In this document: one piece after another, positions 9,753 through 40,549 of the stretch
Layout of the letters: each line of letters starts with the position of its first letter
How positions within the stretch are numbered: position 1 is the first letter of the stretch
Sequence record: NC_054912.1
Direction: 5' to 3' (one strand)
Length of the DNA: 64,000 nt
Source: Escherichia phage vB_EcoM_F1
Position numbers and translations under genes: made by a program
Notes under the pieces: model-generated
What the model saw: only the letters and a program-made list of their open reading frames with translations
Database searches by the model: none
What the model was told of the DNA's origin: nothing

Positions 9753-10223
9753 TTAATCATGTTTCCACACCCCATCGGTATTTGACCAAAGTCGCTGATT
9801 ATCTGATCCTCGCCACAGCTTTTTAGTCGGAAGATTTTTCTCATACTTCCCATCAATAATAACATCAACATATTTAAGCATTTCTAGTTGTTTAATATCT
9901 TCAAACTTATATCCTGTCCACAACCAAATGCTTTTATTGGGATAAAGATTTTTTACTGTTTGAACGATGCAATGAATCACGTCTCTGTTATCAGGATAAA
10001 GAGGGTCACCTCCGGTTATAGTTAATCCTTCTATATAATCATTATTCAAACATTCAATTAATTGTTCTAGTGTTTCACCAGTGAATGGAATACCATTTCT
10101 AGCATTCCATGTTGATTTATTATAACACCCTTCGCATTTATGCAAACAACCTGTAACGAAAAGAACGGTCCTGCATCCAGGGCCATTCACAAAATCGCAA
10201 GGATAAAATCTATCATAATTCAT
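9753..10223 (-). CDS. nrdG: anaerobic ribonucleotide reductase activating protein (radical SAM)
   Basis: 156 aa; CxxxCxxC-type cluster motif GCLHKCEGC. Confidence 0.9.
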   Translation of the reverse strand: MNYDRFYPCDFVNGPGCRTVLFVTGCLHKCEGCYNKSTWNARNGIPFTGETLEQLIECLNNDYIEGLTITGGDPLYPDNRDVIHCIVQTVKNLYPNKSIWLWTGYKFEDIKQLEMLKYVDVIIDGKYEKNLPTKKLWRGSDNQRLWSNTDGVWKHD

Positions 10224-11520
10224 TGGTGTTTAACCCTATGCATGATTTCTTTATTTTTACCGAGATTAAATCCGCGTTCGTTCGGATTTCCCAAATAACC
10301 ACATGTTCTTCTTATGGTATTCATCTTTTTAGGATCAGTTTCTCCACAAATAGAACAAACAAATCCGTTTTCAGTAGGAGTCATTTCATGGGTACTTCCA
10401 CATGTAAAACATTTATCTACTGGCATATTAACACCAAAATAATCTAAATGTTGTGCAGCATAATCCCACACGGCCTCAAGACCCTTTAAGTTATTTTTCA
10501 TATCAGGAAGTTCAACATAAGAAATGTGACCACCTGTCGCAATGAAATGATATGGCGCTTCACGAGAAATCTTTTCAAACGGAGTAATATTTTCTTCTAC
10601 TGAAACATGGAAACTGTTAGTGTACCAACCTTTATCAGTAACATCCTTTACACTTCCATATTTTTCTGTATCGAGTTTACAGAAGCGATAACAAAGGTTT
10701 TCAGCAGGAGTAGAATATAAACTAAAAGCAAAACCGGTTCTTTCAGTCCACTGTTTAAGATGAGCATTCATTTTAGTTAAAATTTCTCGTCCAATATCAC
10801 GACCGACAAGAATATTCAATTCGTGAATACCAATGTATCCTAGGGACACTGAACTTCTACCGTTTTTAAATAACTCAATTATGTCGTCATCAGGTTTAAG
10901 ACGAACCCCGAATGCACCTTCTTGGTAAAGAATAGGAGCAACAGTAGCTTTAACTCCTTTTAAGGAACTAATTCTACACATCAAGGCTTCAAAACATAAA
11001 TCCATTCGCTCATTGAATAATTCAGTAAATTTCTGTTCATTGAGCTGTGTTCCAATATAAGAATCTAACGCGATACGAGGAAGATTCAGTGTTACAACAC
11101 CAAGATTATTACGTCCATCAAGAATTTCATTACCAGTCGAATCTTTCCATACGCTCAAGAAACTACGGCAACCCATTGGAGAAACAGGAATAGATGAACC
11201 AGTGATAGCTTTATTGTTCTTAGCTGAAATAATATCAGGATACATTCTTTTGCTTGCACACTCTAGAGCAAGCTGCTTAATATCATAGTTCGGATCGTCT
11301 TTATAAAGATTAACACCTTCTTCAACAAACATAACAAGCTTAGGGAAAATAGGAGTTATCCCATCACGACCAAGACCTTTAATACGATTTTTCAGAATTG
11401 CTTTCTGAATCATTCGTTCAGTCCAGTCAGTTCCCGTACCAAATGTAATTGTTACAAAAGGCGTTTGCCCATTAGAGCTGAAAAGTGTATTTACTTCATC
11501 ATTATATTCAGCATGAGTCG
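10220..11520 (-). CDS. nrdD: anaerobic ribonucleotide reductase NrdD, exon 2
   Basis: Class III RNR sequence including the C-terminal glycyl-radical region (RRTCGYLG); 5' boundary is the 3' splice site, placed only to about 20 nt. Confidence 0.85.
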
Positions 11521-11727
11521 CAAATTCATGCCCGTTTATATGAAACAACAAAATTTGGATAGTCCATAGATATGCAACGTTCTTTTATAGTGCTAGGATG
11601 AAAATTTAGCGCTTTAGCTGCTTCTATATAAGACGTATACTTAATACCGTCAACAACCACATATTCAGGAACTTTATGAATAGTAGTCTTAATACTCAAA
11701 ACAAGAGGATGAGTTTCGACTTCACTT

Positions 11728-12297
11728 TCAGTGCAATTTAAATATTCCGCTGCTTTTTTTAAAACTTCTAAAAGTTTTATTTTTAAGCTTTATCGATACT
11801 TGTTTTTTACTTTTTCGACTATTGATATTATTTTGCACATGTTCCTTAGATCTTCCGTTTTTAGCATAATATTCAGCTATAGAAGATTTTATATTGTTTT
11901 TATGAGATTCGGATAACACTTTACCCTTATGAGCATCTCTTAATTTTTGAATATGTTCTTCAGTATCCGGATGCTTATAAAACTTTTTACCGCCTATGGA
12001 TTTATTTAAACATTTTTTGCTATAAAAATGTTTACGTATGACCTCTTCTTCATGTTTTAATGCATCTTTATAACTATCAAATGTTTTTAAAATTATCCAT
12101 TTAGTAGGTGTATCAGTTTTTAAGCGTTCATTTATATACTTAGATGACGTTGTGTAAGTTTTCCAGTTTGTGGGCTTGTTTTTAATTGTTCTAAATTTTT
12201 TATAACCGATATAAATGTCGCCGTTAGAAAACTTAACTAAGTATGTAAATGCGTCTTTATCTTTTATTTTAGTACAACGTCTTTTTATCCATTTCAT
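11728..12297 (-). CDS. intron-encoded GIY-YIG homing endonuclease (I-TevII-like), N-terminal catalytic part; gene appears frameshifted
   Basis: 189-aa ORF with GIY-YIG-type motif (FSNGDIYIGY); a C-terminal HTH-like segment continues in the +1 frame at 11528-11790. Confidence 0.7.
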   Translation of the reverse strand: MKWIKRRCTKIKDKDAFTYLVKFSNGDIYIGYKKFRTIKNKPTNWKTYTTSSKYINERLKTDTPTKWIILKTFDSYKDALKHEEEVIRKHFYSKKCLNKSIGGKKFYKHPDTEEHIQKLRDAHKGKVLSESHKNNIKSSIAEYYAKNGRSKEHVQNNINSRKSKKQVSIKLKNKTFRSFKKSSGIFKLH

Positions 12298-12336
12298 TGT
12301 TTCACCTCGTATTCATAAGATAATCTTATTTATACA

Positions 12337-12344
12337 AGATGACT
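12337..12344 (-). promoter_or_regulatory. late promoter (TATAAATA) inside the intron, upstream of the endonuclease ORF
   Basis: Plus tatttata = TATAAATA on minus strand, about 40 nt upstream of the ORF start. Confidence 0.55.
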
Positions 12345-12537
12345 GCTGCATGTCGCCATGCAGATTAGACTATATCTTCATCTTTCGATGCCGGCCGTTT
12401 CGAATAGCATTAGCTTCTATTCTACACCGCTACATTCATCACGGTTAGTCGTTAGGCATTTAGTTCAAAAGAACATTTAGCACGGGATTGTCTACTAGAG
12501 AGGTTCCCCGTTTAGACCGGTTTTACATGAGCCTGAA

Positions 12538-13083
12538 TTAAATTAACTCATACGCCTGGAACGCGTCATAGACATCTTTTTCTGTTTTAGATTGAGCATA
12601 ATTCAATGCATCAGCGATTTGCCATTTTTCTGCATCCTCAATATGTTTTGCATAGGTGCGTTTAACATAAGGAGAAAGTACTTTATCTACATTCGCAAAA
12701 GTCGTTCCGCCATATTGATGGGAAGCAACCTGTGCAGTAATTTGTGCCATAATTGCAGTAGCAACACCGATTGATTTAGGAGTTTCAATCTGTGCATTAC
12801 CAAGCTTAAATCCATTCTCAAGCATTCCTTTTAAATCTACTAAACAGCAATTAGTAAATGGAAGAGCAGGGGAATAATCAATATCGTGGAAATGAATAAT
12901 TCCGCTTTCATGCGCTTTCATAATAAAAGACGGGACCATATTTTTGGCAATGTGTTTAGACACAATACCAGCCATAAGGTCCCGTTGAGTTGGAAAAACA
13001 CGAGAATCTTTATTAGCATTCTCGTTTAAAAGGTCTTTATTAGTTTTATGAATCAATCCTTCAATTTCTTTTTCAATTGTCAT
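12538..13083 (-). CDS. nrdD: anaerobic ribonucleotide reductase NrdD, exon 1
   Basis: N-terminal NrdD sequence; the ORF reads through the 5' splice site, so the 3' boundary is approximate. Confidence 0.85.
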   Translation of the reverse strand: MTIEKEIEGLIHKTNKDLLNENANKDSRVFPTQRDLMAGIVSKHIAKNMVPSFIMKAHESGIIHFHDIDYSPALPFTNCCLVDLKGMLENGFKLGNAQIETPKSIGVATAIMAQITAQVASHQYGGTTFANVDKVLSPYVKRTYAKHIEDAEKWQIADALNYAQSKTEKDVYDAFQAYELI

Positions 13084-13553
13084 TTTAAACTCTTTCTAAG
13101 CTGCTTCTTAAATGAAGCTATTAACTGTGTTTTGGTGTCAGATTCATTATATTCAAATCCTCTTTGAAGCATCTCAGCCATCATTTCCTCTTTTCCTAAA
13201 CGAGAAAATTCCTTTGATTTATCTCCAACAAAGTTAGGGTGAATATTATTTTGGGTGTAATCGGATTTTAAATAAGTAAGTAAATTTTCTAACCATTCAA
13301 GATAATCAACACCTTGTCCCTTTAAGCCAGAACGATTAAATTTATGCTTCATTTGACCTTCTGCAGCATTGCAGAGATTACAAAGCAATCCACGTACCTT
13401 TCCTGCTTTTGGTCCATTTAATTCATGGTCATGGTCGAGGTGATTAGCTTGAACATCAGGATTTAGTTCTCGTTGGCAAATTAAGCATTTACCGTTTTGT
13501 GCATCATAAAATTTCTGTTTTTCTTCTTTGTATAATTTGCCAGTCAATAACAT
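13080..13553 (-). CDS. 49: endonuclease VII (Holliday-junction resolvase)
   Basis: 157 aa with Cys-rich zinc-binding N-terminus; matches T4 gp49. Confidence 0.9.
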   Translation of the reverse strand: MLLTGKLYKEEKQKFYDAQNGKCLICQRELNPDVQANHLDHDHELNGPKAGKVRGLLCNLCNAAEGQMKHKFNRSGLKGQGVDYLEWLENLLTYLKSDYTQNNIHPNFVGDKSKEFSRLGKEEMMAEMLQRGFEYNESDTKTQLIASFKKQLRKSLK

Positions 13554-13595: not shown

Positions 13596-13772
13596 TTAAG
13601 TATTGTAAAACATTCGATGCAATCGTTTATACTGTCGAATCATCTTTTTAGTAGGACGAGAATAGGTTCCTACGCAAGTGGTCATATGAGGGTCCGTAGA
13701 ATGTCCTTTAATAAAAAGTTTCCAAACCTTACCGCCATTTAACTTTTCAGTATAAACCAATTCGGTTTTCAT
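13596..13772 (-). CDS. small ORF (58 aa) sharing its C-terminal tail with Pin
   Basis: Not in the ORF track (below size cut-off); MKTELVYTEK...MIRQYKRLHRMFYNT; preceded by a purine-rich RBS. Confidence 0.5.
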   Translation of the reverse strand: MKTELVYTEKLNGGKVWKLFIKGHSTDPHMTTCVGTYSRPTKKMIRQYKRLHRMFYNT

Positions 13773-13807: not shown

Positions 13808-14293
13808 TCAAGTATTATAAAACATTTGATTCAATCGCTTATATTGCCGAATCTTTTGGTCAGAAAAAGAAATTTGGGTTTCAAGCCATTCAATATATTC
13901 TGCCGCAGCTTGCATCAAATTTCCTTCATAGCCATCGTTATTTTCTTGTGCAGCTAATTTAGCTAATGCGTATGAAATACGTTCACCTTGAAAACCGGCT
14001 TTAGGTTTATGAATAGCTTGATCAACTCGTTCTACAACTTCTTCAATTTCGCCGTTTTCGACTGATTCAGTATTCCACAAACACCAATACGTAATTGGCT
14101 TATCATAGATGTTAATAATCTTTCCGTCGGAAAGTTCAATTTCAATAATTCCAGTATCAGGTTCTATATCATCTTCACATTCTTTTGCAAGTTCACGAAC
14201 TTTAAAGACAGTACCTGCACTAAGTTCCGGCCAGTAATTACATAGCCCTGTATCAGCACGATTAATTCTAAACCACTTATCTACTGTAATCAT
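13808..14293 (-). CDS. pin: Pin, inhibitor of host Lon protease
   Basis: 161 aa from the internal Met; position beside gene 49 and sequence as recalled for T4 pin. Confidence 0.7.
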   Translation of the reverse strand: MITVDKWFRINRADTGLCNYWPELSAGTVFKVRELAKECEDDIEPDTGIIEIELSDGKIINIYDKPITYWCLWNTESVENGEIEEVVERVDQAIHKPKAGFQGERISYALAKLAAQENNDGYEGNLMQAAAEYIEWLETQISFSDQKIRQYKRLNQMFYNT

Positions 14294-14415
14294 GTCCCAT
14301 CTCCATATCAATTAAGTCATTTATCGTTGGTTCATTATATACTGTTTCTTCATCAGTGTAAACCGGTTCTTCCGGCTCTGGCTCTACAGTTTCCCATCTA
14401 GCCGCCCACCAAGGT

Positions 14416-33427: not shown

Positions 33428-33958
<531 letters not shown>

Positions 33959-39193: not shown

Positions 39194-39270
<77 letters not shown>

Positions 39271-39273
39271 TAA

Positions 39274-39939
39274 TTAAAATTTCATTTTTCGACCTTTAAA
39301 CCATCCTTCTGGAATTGGGTCAGTTTTCTTAATACGTTTAGAAACTTTTTCATCTAATGAATGAATCCACATCATACCAAATTGGGAATTCTTTTCACCT
39401 TTCTGGTGATTATTTTTAGCGTGAATTTCTTTCATTTTATTAATAGTTTCAAGAGTATGATGCTTATTTAAAAATCTGCTATTATTTAAAAATTTTTCCC
39501 TGTATTCAGGAGTTGACCACAAGCGTTTAAATACATTTGAACCATGTTTACGATATTTTTCTTGAAGTAAAATATCATTTTTAAAACGTGACTTAAACGA
39601 TTTAGCTCCTTTTAAACTAGCGTCTTTCTTCTGGTTTAGCATCTCAGGAATATTTATATGATCCCATCCGCCTTCACCGCCAAGTTTTAAATTATACACA
39701 TCTGGTCTATTTAAAAACTCTTCTGTGACAATATTTTTCTCGGCTTCAAGCATAGATTCTTTATCATCAAAATATTCTAATATTTCTTTAGAAAAATTTT
39801 CTATACCATACCTGTCTTGGGCTCTTTTTAATAATTTACCAGAACCCATATATCCATCATCTAAATTTTCGGTAGAATGCACACCAATATAAATTTTATT
39901 ATTAATTTTATTTGTTATTTTATAAGTGTAATGGAACAT
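39274..39939 (-). CDS. segB: GIY-YIG homing endonuclease SegB
   Basis: 221 aa; YTYKITNKINNKIYIGVH GIY-YIG motif; sits inside the tRNA cluster as in T4. Confidence 0.85.
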   Translation of the reverse strand: MFHYTYKITNKINNKIYIGVHSTENLDDGYMGSGKLLKRAQDRYGIENFSKEILEYFDDKESMLEAEKNIVTEEFLNRPDVYNLKLGGEGGWDHINIPEMLNQKKDASLKGAKSFKSRFKNDILLQEKYRKHGSNVFKRLWSTPEYREKFLNNSRFLNKHHTLETINKMKEIHAKNNHQKGEKNSQFGMMWIHSLDEKVSKRIKKTDPIPEGWFKGRKMKF

Positions 39940-39980
39940 AAATATCTCCTATTTCTAAGAGTATTTATGTTCCCAAAATA

Positions 39981-40052
39981 TGGCCCTGGGTGGAATTGAA
40001 CCACCATCTGGCGATTATGAGTCGCTTGCTTGAACCTTCCAGCTACAGGGCC
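39981..40052 (-). tRNA. tRNA-Ile/Met type (anticodon CAU), no encoded CCA
   Basis: Manual cloverleaf; anticodon loop CUCAUAA; acceptor GGCCCUG/CAGGGCC. Confidence 0.8.
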
Positions 40053-40053
40053 T

Positions 40054-40129
40054 TGGTGCTGATTGACGGAATCGAACCGCCGACATCCTCATTACAAGTG
40101 AGGTGCTCTACCTACTGAGCTAAATCAGC
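40054..40129 (-). tRNA. tRNA-Thr (UGU), CCA encoded
   Basis: Anticodon loop CUUGUAA; 1 nt from the Ile-type tRNA (dimeric precursor arrangement). Confidence 0.85.
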
Positions 40130-40136
40130 GAAATTA

Positions 40137-40223
40137 CGGAGGCGATAGGATTTGAACCTATGAGTCGCCGGAGCGACTGCCGGTTTTCAAGACCGGTGCA
40201 TTAAACCACTCTGCCACGCCTCC
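40137..40223 (-). tRNA. tRNA-Ser (UGA), class II, no encoded CCA
   Basis: Long variable arm; anticodon loop CUUGAAA. Confidence 0.85.
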
Positions 40224-40225
40224 AG

Positions 40226-40299
40226 TCTCCGCGGCAGGATTTGAACCTACGACATTCTGCTCCCAAAGCAGACGCTCTACCAAACTGAGCTACACGGAG
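40226..40299 (-). tRNA. tRNA-Pro (UGG), no encoded CCA
   Basis: Anticodon loop UUUGGGA; 2 nt from tRNA-Ser. Confidence 0.85.
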
Positions 40300-40309
40300 T
40301 AAATTAAAT

Positions 40310-40383
<74 letters not shown>

Positions 40384-40388
40384 AAATT

Positions 40389-40475
40389 TGGTGCGAGAAG
40401 TGGGACTCGAACCCACAAGGAAATCATTCCGCAGCATTTTAAGTGCTGTGCCTTTACCAATTTGACCATTCTCGC
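40389..40475 (-). tRNA. tRNA-Leu (UAA), class II, CCA encoded
   Basis: Anticodon loop CUUAAAA; long variable arm. Confidence 0.85.
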
Positions 40476-40476
40476 G

Positions 40477-40549
40477 CTGGGAATAAAGGACTCGAACCTT
40501 TGCATCCTGGAATCAAAATCCAGTGCCTTACCAACTTGGCTAATTCCCA
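40477..40549 (-). tRNA. tRNA-Gln (UUG), no encoded CCA
   Basis: Anticodon loop UUUUGAU; 1 nt from tRNA-Leu. Confidence 0.85.

Follow-up and report, generated by a model that had tools for sequence, protein, structure and literature searches.

The class III ribonucleotide reductase gene nrdD of Escherichia phage vB_EcoM_F1 (NC_054912.1) has been entered in the existing annotation as two separate coding sequences, and the question raised by this locus is what separates them and whether a single reductase can be made from the two parts. The whole 64,000-nt stretch of the record analysed here is referred to as the window; in the region concerned, every gene is carried by the minus strand. It had been proposed in the first-pass annotation that nrdD is split around about 1 kb of DNA holding an endonuclease ORF and that the insert is a group I intron. 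The split was borne out, and the interpretation as a group I intron is supported by the core, by splice sites that could be placed exactly and by the colinearity of the spliced NrdD. Taken as a whole, the explanation that a group I intron splits nrdD and that its splicing restores the anaerobic ribonucleotide reductase is held here with high confidence. The features on which it is based are listed in Table 1.

Table 1. Features of the interrupted nrdD locus, with positions given in the window
Feature	Positions	Strand	Description
nrdD exon 1	12546-13083	minus	538 nt; based on ORF list, alignment with T4 and splice join
Ribozyme core	12346-12551	minus	P1, P3, P4, P5, P6, P6a, P7, P7.1, P7.2, P8, P9
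Group I intron	11500-12545	minus	1046 nt; based on intronless relative and T4 insertion point
td-identical patch	12475-12516	minus	Intron nt 30-71: J3/4, P4, P5, P6 5' strand
RBS-sequestering hairpin	12302-12342	minus	11-bp outer stem and 6-bp inner hairpin
T4 late-promoter consensus TATAAATA	12327-12334	minus	Exact match, in 5' half of the hairpin
Putative homing-site mimic ATCTTATGAATACGAGGTGA	12302-12321	minus	16/20 match to intronless junction AGCTTATGAATATGAAGTAA
Truncated endonuclease ORF	11728-12297	minus	189 aa: 181 native residues, then 8 out-of-frame
A7 run with extra A	11754-11760	minus	Frame shifts after residue 181, stop at 11728
Out-of-frame endonuclease remainder	11526-11753	minus	C-terminal 75 codons and stop; NUMOD1-like DNA-binding part; based on SA20RB/T4 alignment
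3'-terminal hairpin	11511-11531	minus	GCAUGA...UCAUGC; overlaps endonuclease stop codon
nrdD exon 2	10220-11499	minus	1280 nt; 5' end AUGAAGUAAAU

The positions of the splice sites were determined computationally. The intronless Mosigvirus NBG1 carries the contiguous sequence TATGAATATGAAG at the insertion point, and joining of the two exons gives an identical junction; an uninterrupted nrdD junction was found in 621 phage records. In the alignment with T4, the insertion point is that of T4, after GAGU and before AUGAAG. The 3' end of exon 1 is ...GCG UAU GAG U, the final U of which enters the U-G pair of P1, and the intron starts with UAAUUUAAUU and ends with AUAUAAUG (...AUAAUG), its last base being G. 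By direct reading of the sequence, nucleotides +2 to +5 of exon 2 are complementary to nucleotides 9-12 of the intron and could form a P10. The intron limits first given, 11520-12540, were 20 and 5 nt off the actual ends, within the tolerance of about 20 nt that had been attached to them. The exon join is precise and in frame and results in a NrdD of 605 aa, which is colinear with the Pfam NRDD model over positions 1-562 of 562 (E = 3e-171) and also with Gly_radical. Read unspliced, the frame of exon 1 runs into a stop codon 5 nt inside the insert.

The full group I core was found within 200 nt of the intron's 5' end, wholly 5' of the endonuclease ORF. In a permissive scan of 1.5 kb it scored 74 bits with Rfam RF00028, for which the gathering score is 50 (E = 1.5e-18), and the match covered model positions 1-253 of 253; the whole-window Rfam scan with default filters and gathering thresholds returned eight tRNAs only and missed the intron. 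The absence of a core structure had been named in the first-pass annotation as an observation that would speak against an intron; the core is present. Of the two segments suggested there for folding, the 5' 240 nt and the 3' 170 nt, the first contains the core and the second proved to be mostly leftover coding sequence. The placement of P1 by the RF00028 model, on exon sequence, was wrong, and P1 was set by hand and then checked: exon AUGAGU pairs with intron GCUCAU, with U-G at the 5' splice site. In the covariation analysis of 49 base pairs, 99.6% of the cells were paired and 13 pairs had changed on both sides in comparison with phage T4, the structure having been derived from the sequences tested and the comparison comprising only two truly distinct lineages. 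The real result was matched by none of 500 shuffles, and slid controls were paired at 31-36%. Since MAFFT misregistered P8 and the RBS hairpin's 5' arm between the lineages, these were omitted from the pair count and checked per sequence; every helix, P8 and the 3' hairpin included, is paired in the window type as well as in the T4 type. P1, P5, P6, P7, and P9 are invariant between the lineages and thus carry no covariation information. Phage FL23 has an extra compensated change in P6a, from C-G to U-A.

At the other end of the intron, the 3'-terminal hairpin is followed by UGAAUAUAAUG and then by the 3' splice site. It is predicted by RNA folding and has six of six pairs both here and in T4 (GUAGAG/CUCUAC), four of them changed on both sides. 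A plus-strand terminator considered at 11511-11531 was rejected, as it is this same hairpin in reverse reading, and the terminator annotated in the relative SA20RB was likewise rejected, being P9. A long-range pairing closing the ORF-containing loop, for which T4 has GUUUAU/AUAAAC, was also sought; the window has no equivalent, and this element was discarded as unverifiable, the 5' element of T4 being able to pair locally.

The closest known system is the T4 nrdD (sunY) intron with its endonuclease I-TevII, which occupies the same insertion point in the same host gene and shows the same order of parts, i.e., the P1-P9 core, a hairpin with a late promoter, a GIY-YIG gene, a short 3' hairpin, and the splice site. 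The P1, P7, and P9 stems are identical, with a one-base difference in the loop of P9, and the arms of the RBS hairpin are kept, whereas other base pairs are found in P3, P4, P6a, P7.1, P7.2, P8, and the 3' hairpin. In a pairwise search, DNA identity to the T4 intron was 66% over 97% of the intron (E = 4e-125), while the exons are about 95-99% identical. The intron is 1045 nt long in most relatives and 1033 nt in T4, and a 9-nt insertion in the RBS hairpin of the window forms the inner hairpin. The T4 td intron with I-TevI belongs to the same intron class and follows the same control logic of late promoter and hairpin (PMC2988022), but resides in another host gene and carries its ORF within P6, in contrast to the position after P9 in the window.

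If the intron behaves as its T4 counterpart does, guanosine would attack at the U-G pair of P1 and the exons would be ligated after the terminal G, yielding the 605-aa anaerobic ribonucleotide reductase. The viability of the phage is no proof of splicing, since nrdD is not needed in aerobic laboratory growth. The GIY-YIG gene lies downstream of P9, and its control elements would be expected to act as in T4, where middle and late promoters have been mapped for the three intron endonucleases and where late-only expression needs both the promoter and a hairpin hiding the ribosome-binding site (PMC2988022). The same arrangement, with the late-promoter motif inside the hairpin in which the Shine-Dalgarno sequence is paired, is present in the window and matches both T4 and the description in that review. 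The Shine-Dalgarno GAGG of the endonuclease gene (12305-12308) is buried in the predicted hairpin, which has a folding energy of -17.3 kcal/mol (z = -6.3; 0/200 shuffles equally stable), compared with -15.3 for the T4 counterpart, and eight of eight pairs of its arms are formed in both lineages; an RNA beginning at 12320 is predicted to be unstructured. In read-through pre-mRNA the stable hairpin would cover the ribosome-binding site of the endonuclease, and late transcripts, which would start near 12320 and lack the inhibitory arm, would be translatable, because TATAAATA sits in the 5' half of the hairpin and the start lies beyond that arm. The stretch from the predicted start to the ribosome-binding site contains the homing-site mimic, whose match was reached by at most one of 500 shuffles. 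The mimic may serve as an operator for autorepression, as has been proposed in an analogous way for I-TevII (PMC2988022), or it could be a relic of the invasion by the endonuclease gene.

On several details of this control region the first-pass annotation has to be amended. The exact TATAAATA upstream of the ORF is present; however, there is only one site in the region and not two, as the tatttata reported at 12337-12344 is the same site on the plus strand, misplaced by 10 nt. The spacing to the ORF had been put at about 40 nt; the A of the endonuclease ATG lies 30 nt from the motif when its last base is taken and 37 nt when its first base is taken. The idea that the promoter restricts the endonuclease to late times is consistent with the T4-aligned motif, but was incomplete, since by analogy with T4 the hairpin, which had gone unmentioned and is present here, would be needed as well.

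The endonuclease ORF had been taken at its apparent length of 189 aa; it is shortened by a frameshift, and the coding sequence continues to 11526. The GIY-YIG domain was detected at residues 9-87 (Pfam SegE_GIY-YIG, 28.1 bits against a cut-off of 25), and two pieces were required by tblastn to cover the endonuclease in the source phage. The intact allele of the relatives has 256 aa (258 aa in T4) with a NUMOD1 match at residues 171-193, shows 56% full-length identity to I-TevII, and is annotated as a single homing-endonuclease ORF in most records of the lineage. In the window, no ORF running through to the C-terminal DNA-binding part was found, and only about 26 nt of non-coding sequence follow the true stop codon. 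Since the predicted product lacks the DNA-binding domain, the intron would probably splice and yet be unable to home unaided, although the loss of endonuclease activity is itself judged from T4. Because of the frameshift, the control elements described above may now govern a dead gene. Lesions were also found elsewhere in the lineage, namely two more frameshifts and two internal deletions (567 and 701 nt) in four other phages, the deletions leaving the core and the 3' end untouched. Decay of the endonuclease is thus common in the lineage, where the frame has been shifted independently in three copies and two others carry internal deletions, and the ribozyme is intact. In exact-pattern scans of IMG/VR, neither the A6 nor the A7 context was found.

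The frameshift could possibly be caused by an error in the sequencing or assembly of the source genome, in which case the endonuclease would be intact at 256 aa and the intron copy fully mobile. A one-base change in the length of a homopolymer is a typical error of this kind, and among the five full-length window-type copies aligned, A7 was found only in the window and A6 in the other four; a single endonuclease ORF is entered in most of the 42 records. However, the same endonuclease copy carries three further substitutions absent from the other four copies (12223, 12030, and 11880), two of which are amino-acid changes, whereas no private substitution is present in its ribozyme core, and the independent inactivating lesions in four other phages indicate that decay is common. 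An error is considered unlikely, although it is the most serious of the alternatives. There is only a very slight chance that the A7 run acts as a slippage site, at which some transcripts or ribosomes regain the frame and give a low level of full-length endonuclease: transcriptional slippage is possible on long A-runs and a single-base shift would suffice, but the relatives have A6 in frame, so that the arrangement is not conserved, and seven A's are short for efficient slippage.

The splicing itself and the promoter have to be weighed in the same way. The stop codon that ends the exon 1 frame and the two annotated nrdD coding sequences would also be explained if nrdD were a pseudogene, or if the two parts were made as separate polypeptides like the nrdA of Aeromonas phage Aeh1, which is split by mobE; such intronless split reductase genes are functional and provide a precedent (PMC3653736). 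This is highly improbable in view of the complete, covariation-supported core, in which P7 and the P8-to-P7 joining strand do not differ from the T4 intron, and of the U-G pair at the 5' splice site, the terminal G, and the exact in-frame junction. As for the promoter, TATAAATA might be no more than a part of the hairpin or a chance match in AT-rich DNA, and the endonuclease, if translated at all, would then come from read-through RNA. The 8-mer occurs 14 times in the window with 11.5 +/- 3.6 expected from shuffles, which is not above chance, and the scan for sigma-70 promoters and terminators, which has no T4 late-promoter model, found nothing relevant. The weight of the site comes from its position and its homology with T4. 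It aligns with the copy upstream of I-TevII and is exact in both lineages, in an unchanged position with respect to the hairpin arm, although the flanks have diverged and the two lineages differ at about one-third of positions and by the adjacent 9-nt insertion. The mapped middle and late promoters of the three T4 intron endonucleases (PMC2988022) point the same way, and a non-functional motif is accordingly regarded as quite improbable. In SA20RB the site carries a late-promoter annotation. Splicing from this core and late transcription from this motif would both be expected from T4.

The introns at this site fall into two separate clusters with no intermediates. The T4 type was found in 25 records, phage U5 among them, and the window type in 44 phage records (42 full and two deleted copies); within each type the copies are mutually at least 99% identical. 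The window intron shares with the T4 element the site and homology over the whole intron, and is not near-identical to it as a copy of the same allele would be. U5 (AY262145), the only other nrdD intron deposited from an earlier T-even survey, is of the T4 type, and no description of the window-type lineage was found in the literature searched.

Parts of the core resemble introns other than that of T4 nrdD. The patch running from J3/4 into P6 agrees with the T4 td intron at 42 of 42 positions, compared with 32 of 42 for the T4 nrdD intron over the same stretch, and the remaining core is about 68% identical to td. Judged from the sequence, this suggests natural recombination between different introns; domain shuffling between phage introns has been achieved in the laboratory. 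Vequintavirus navn and Vibrio phage 1.084.O likewise have group I introns in nrdD, and their P6-P9 core is 80-85% identical to that of the window, versus 76% for the T4 nrdD intron. They belong to other phage groups and contain other ORFs (annotated as hypothetical, winged-helix or HNH), and the nrdD of navn is divided into three pieces, with an insertion point that seems not to be the same. It is tentatively suggested, as a plausible reading rather than a probable one, that the window intron represents a second, uncharacterised T-even lineage of nrdD introns, a rival of that of T4 for one site and a natural mosaic of an nrdD-type P1 and guide region, a td-identical 42-nt P4-P5 module, and a P6-P9 part nearest to Vibrio/rV5-like nrdD introns, whose endonuclease, with 56% identity to I-TevII, may differ from it in how the common target is cut or bound. 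If this were true, the locus would offer a natural example of intron domain shuffling and of two diverged enzymes directed at a single target.

The architecture and control logic are those established for phage T4 in the 1980s-1990s and are ordinary biology. What the comparison adds is the presence of two deeply diverged intron/endonuclease lineages at one site, each near-clonal over many phages, which fits recent horizontal spread of old elements, and, in the window-type lineage, a decay of the endonuclease gene in progress with the ribozyme kept. The exact splice coordinates should also be helpful for curation, because annotation pipelines still enter nrdD as two genes, and the endonuclease is often labelled hypothetical.

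The first-pass annotation proposed that nrdD is interrupted by a group I intron whose endonuclease gene has a late promoter inside the intron, and this is supported by the ribozyme core, the splice junction and the conserved late-promoter consensus TATAAATA. The nrdD coding sequence is split by an ORF-containing insert as claimed, and the locus is transcribed from the minus strand only, in the order gene 49, first nrdD piece, insert, second nrdD piece and nrdG. Splice sites were set by alignment with T4, in which nrdD is annotated in two pieces (intron of 1033 nt), and with the intronless Mosigvirus NBG1, in which the junction is contiguous (...TATGAATATGAAGT...). They fall after the U at 12546 (5') and after the G at 11500 (3'), so that the intron spans 11500-12545 (1046 nt); the intron as such stood, while the limits first given for it (11520-12540) had to be moved. 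The placement is unambiguous, since a one-base shift of either boundary changes the joined sequence. The exons joined in silico (1818 nt) encode 605 aa, which match the Pfam NRDD profile completely (1-562/562) in a single stretch (E = 3e-171), plus a glycyl-radical domain. The uninterrupted nrdD junction occurs in 621 phage records. The junction codon reads GAG-U in intron-bearing alleles and GAA-U in NBG1; because its G pairs with the intron guide sequence, this synonymous change was probably co-inherited with the intron, judging from one intronless sequence.

Features of the nrdD locus, in order of transcription
Feature	Position	Strand
Gene 49 (endonuclease VII)	13080-13553	minus
nrdD, first piece	ends 12546	minus
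nrdD insert	about 1 kb between the two nrdD pieces	minus
nrdD, second piece	10220-11499	minus
nrdG	9753-10223	minus

At gathering thresholds and default settings, Rfam missed the intron in the full 64 kb. When 11300-12800 (1.5 kb) was scanned alone with the same model and laxer filters, Intron_gpI matched at 12346-12577 (74 bits, gathering score 50, E = 1.5e-18); ORF-carrying introns can thus be lost by default scans. According to this match, the first 200 intron nt contain the whole core, which thus precedes the ORF. The 3' 170 nt, where part of the core had been expected, are mostly dead coding sequence, since the coding sequence runs to 11526-11528; only 26 nt follow the true endonuclease stop, with a 3' hairpin (11511-11531) that overlaps the stop codon. 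Helices P1, P3, P4, P5, P6, P6a, P7, P7.1, P7.2, P8, P9 and the 3'-terminal hairpin were positioned by hand, and all pair fully in the window and T4 alike. In a formal count of 49 pairs in five sequences (the window, T4, and FL23, SA20RB and F27, phages with the window-type intron), 99.6% of cells were paired and 13 pairs showed two-sided changes, the structure being derived from the very sequences counted and these representing really two distinct lineages only. None of 500 shuffles was as good, and sliding the structure by 1-3 columns left only 31-36% paired. Compensatory changes are located in P3, P4, P6a, P7.1 and P7.2, and P8 and the 3' hairpin use different base pairs in the window and T4 with pairing kept; FL23 has its own compensated change in P6a (C-G to U-A), and in F27 a P3 pair is changed from U-G to U-A. 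P1, P7 and the P8-to-P7 joining strand are identical to those of the T4 nrdD intron, the classic self-splicing sunY intron. The 5' splice site falls at a U-G pair of P1, G is the last intron nucleotide, and a possible P10 could be read from exon 2 nt +2 to +5 (UGAA) with intron nt 9-12 (UUCA).

The late-promoter motif TATAAATA is present upstream of the ORF as reported, but exactly once in the region (12334..12327, minus strand); the "tatttata" listed separately at 12337-12344 is this element read on the other strand and misplaced by 10 nt. The 8-mer match taken alone proves nothing, and the 14 copies in the window are not an over-representation (11.5 +/- 3.6 in shuffles). At 33936-33956, the minus strand carries two exact copies 13 nt apart. 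The evidence for the putative late promoter is instead the conservation of the motif, which is exact in both intron lineages despite diverged surroundings. In T4, the intron endonuclease genes are under mapped middle and late promoters of their own, a hairpin in read-through RNA hides the ribosome-binding site and silences them, and the late start lies inside the hairpin, so that late RNA is translatable (PMC2988022, citing the original 1988 mapping). This design of promoter and hairpin is, as far as folding predictions indicate, retained in the window, and the hairpin supplies the second component of the timing control, which the first account lacked. The RNA 12345..12290 is predicted to fold at -17.3 kcal/mol (z = -6.3; equal stability in 0/200 shuffles), compared with -15.3 kcal/mol for the T4 counterpart. 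In its outer stem of 11 bp, UCAUCUUGUAU pairs with AUACGAGGUGA, and the GAGG at 12305-12308, 7 nt before the AUG, is buried in the stem. At the two positions where the 5' arm shows C-to-U differences, pairing is preserved as G-U, and a 9-nt insertion relative to T4 forms an additional inner hairpin; TATAAATA extends from the last part of the outer 5' arm across this inner hairpin. T4 late transcripts typically start 6-8 nt downstream of the motif, which predicts a start at about 12319-12321, and RNA from 12320 has no predicted structure.

A stretch of 20 nt between the predicted late start and the ribosome-binding site (12321..12302, ATCTTATGAATACGAGGTGA) agrees with the intronless junction AGCTTATGAATATGAAGTAA at 16 positions, with 14/16 in the best 16-nt stretch, a level reached in at most 1 of 500 shuffles. 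Homing-site-like "operators" have been described over the promoters of I-TevI (autorepression shown) and I-TevII (untested), the endonucleases of the T4 td and nrdD introns (PMC2988022). The mimic may just as well have been left behind when the endonuclease gene first entered the intron, an idea from the literature of the 1990s.

A GIY-YIG domain (Pfam SegE_GIY-YIG, 28.1 bits) is encoded by the ORF that begins at 12297. Most relatives have a single endonuclease ORF of 256 aa, 56% identical to I-TevII over its full length and with a NUMOD1-type match at residues 171-193. In the window, the A-run at 11754-11760 has seven A's, compared with six in all four other full-length copies aligned, and the frame is shifted after residue 181, with a stop at 11728; 75 codons remain out of frame up to the original stop at 11526-11528. 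The extra A could be a homopolymer sequencing error, although we consider this rather unlikely. The endonuclease of vB_EcoM_FN (Tequatrovirus, MZ170041), which is 100% identical to the window over 1.5 kb around the intron, also required two pieces in tblastn and is recorded in GenBank as two "hypothetical proteins". Three substitutions in the window copy are absent from the other four copies, all within the ORF and none in the core. Independent lesions in other phages are an additional G near 11959 in 236Ecol005PP, a missing A at 12286 in F27, and internal deletions in 215Ecol030PP (567 nt, equivalent to 11691-12257) and BYEP01 (701 nt, 11582-12282), natural "mini-introns" that retain the 5' core together with the terminal 82-191 nt. 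Such lesions in several phages are the expected decay of a homing-endonuclease gene after its target sites are occupied.

The window intron is not the T4 element: its identity to the T4 intron is only 66%, although the flanking exons share about 95-99% with T4. Introns in the phage collection formed two tight clusters with nothing between, each with at least 99% mutual identity: a T4 type (25 records, including T4, RB55, RB59, PST and the U5 fragment AY262145) and the window type (42 full-length records and two deletion derivatives), the latter in Tequatrovirus and Mosigvirus phages of Escherichia, Shigella, Salmonella and Proteus. That near-clonal introns sit in phages of varied background is consistent with recent spread through homing. 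The window-type core is an apparent mosaic. Its nt 1-29 most resemble the T4 nrdD intron (84% over 25 aligned nt); nt 30-71 (12475-12516, minus; J3/4, P4, P5 and the start of P6) are identical to the T4 td intron at 42/42 positions, compared with 32/42 for T4 nrdD; and for nt 72-203 the nearest sequences are the nrdD introns of a Vibrio phage (85%) and a Vequintavirus (80%), then T4 nrdD (76%) and td (68%). The perfect 42-nt run, flanked by sequence of about 68% identity, suggests recombination between the window-type nrdD intron and td. Hundreds of T4-like phages match the query solely through this stretch. Group I introns with different ORFs, and with P6-P9 cores 80-85% identical to that of the window intron, also split nrdD in unrelated phage groups, namely in the Vequintavirus navn, where three nrdD pieces are annotated, and in Vibrio phage 1.084.O. 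A search of the accessible literature found no description of the window-type lineage; the kind of element is textbook, and the lineage is apparently a new, uncharacterised member.

As for the neighbourhood, nrdG directly abuts nrdD with a stop/start overlap, whereas in T4 the free-standing endonuclease gene mobC, absent there in the window, lies between them. A 58-aa ORF between gene 49 and a pin-like gene (13596-13772, minus strand), at a position where T4 has no ORF, ends in ...IRQYKRLHRMFYNT, nearly the same as the C-terminus ...IRQYKRLNQMFYNT of the adjoining 167-aa ORF (13808-14311, minus strand), as if the end of a gene had been partly duplicated. Eight tRNA genes are clustered at 39197-40549 (minus strand), as in T4.
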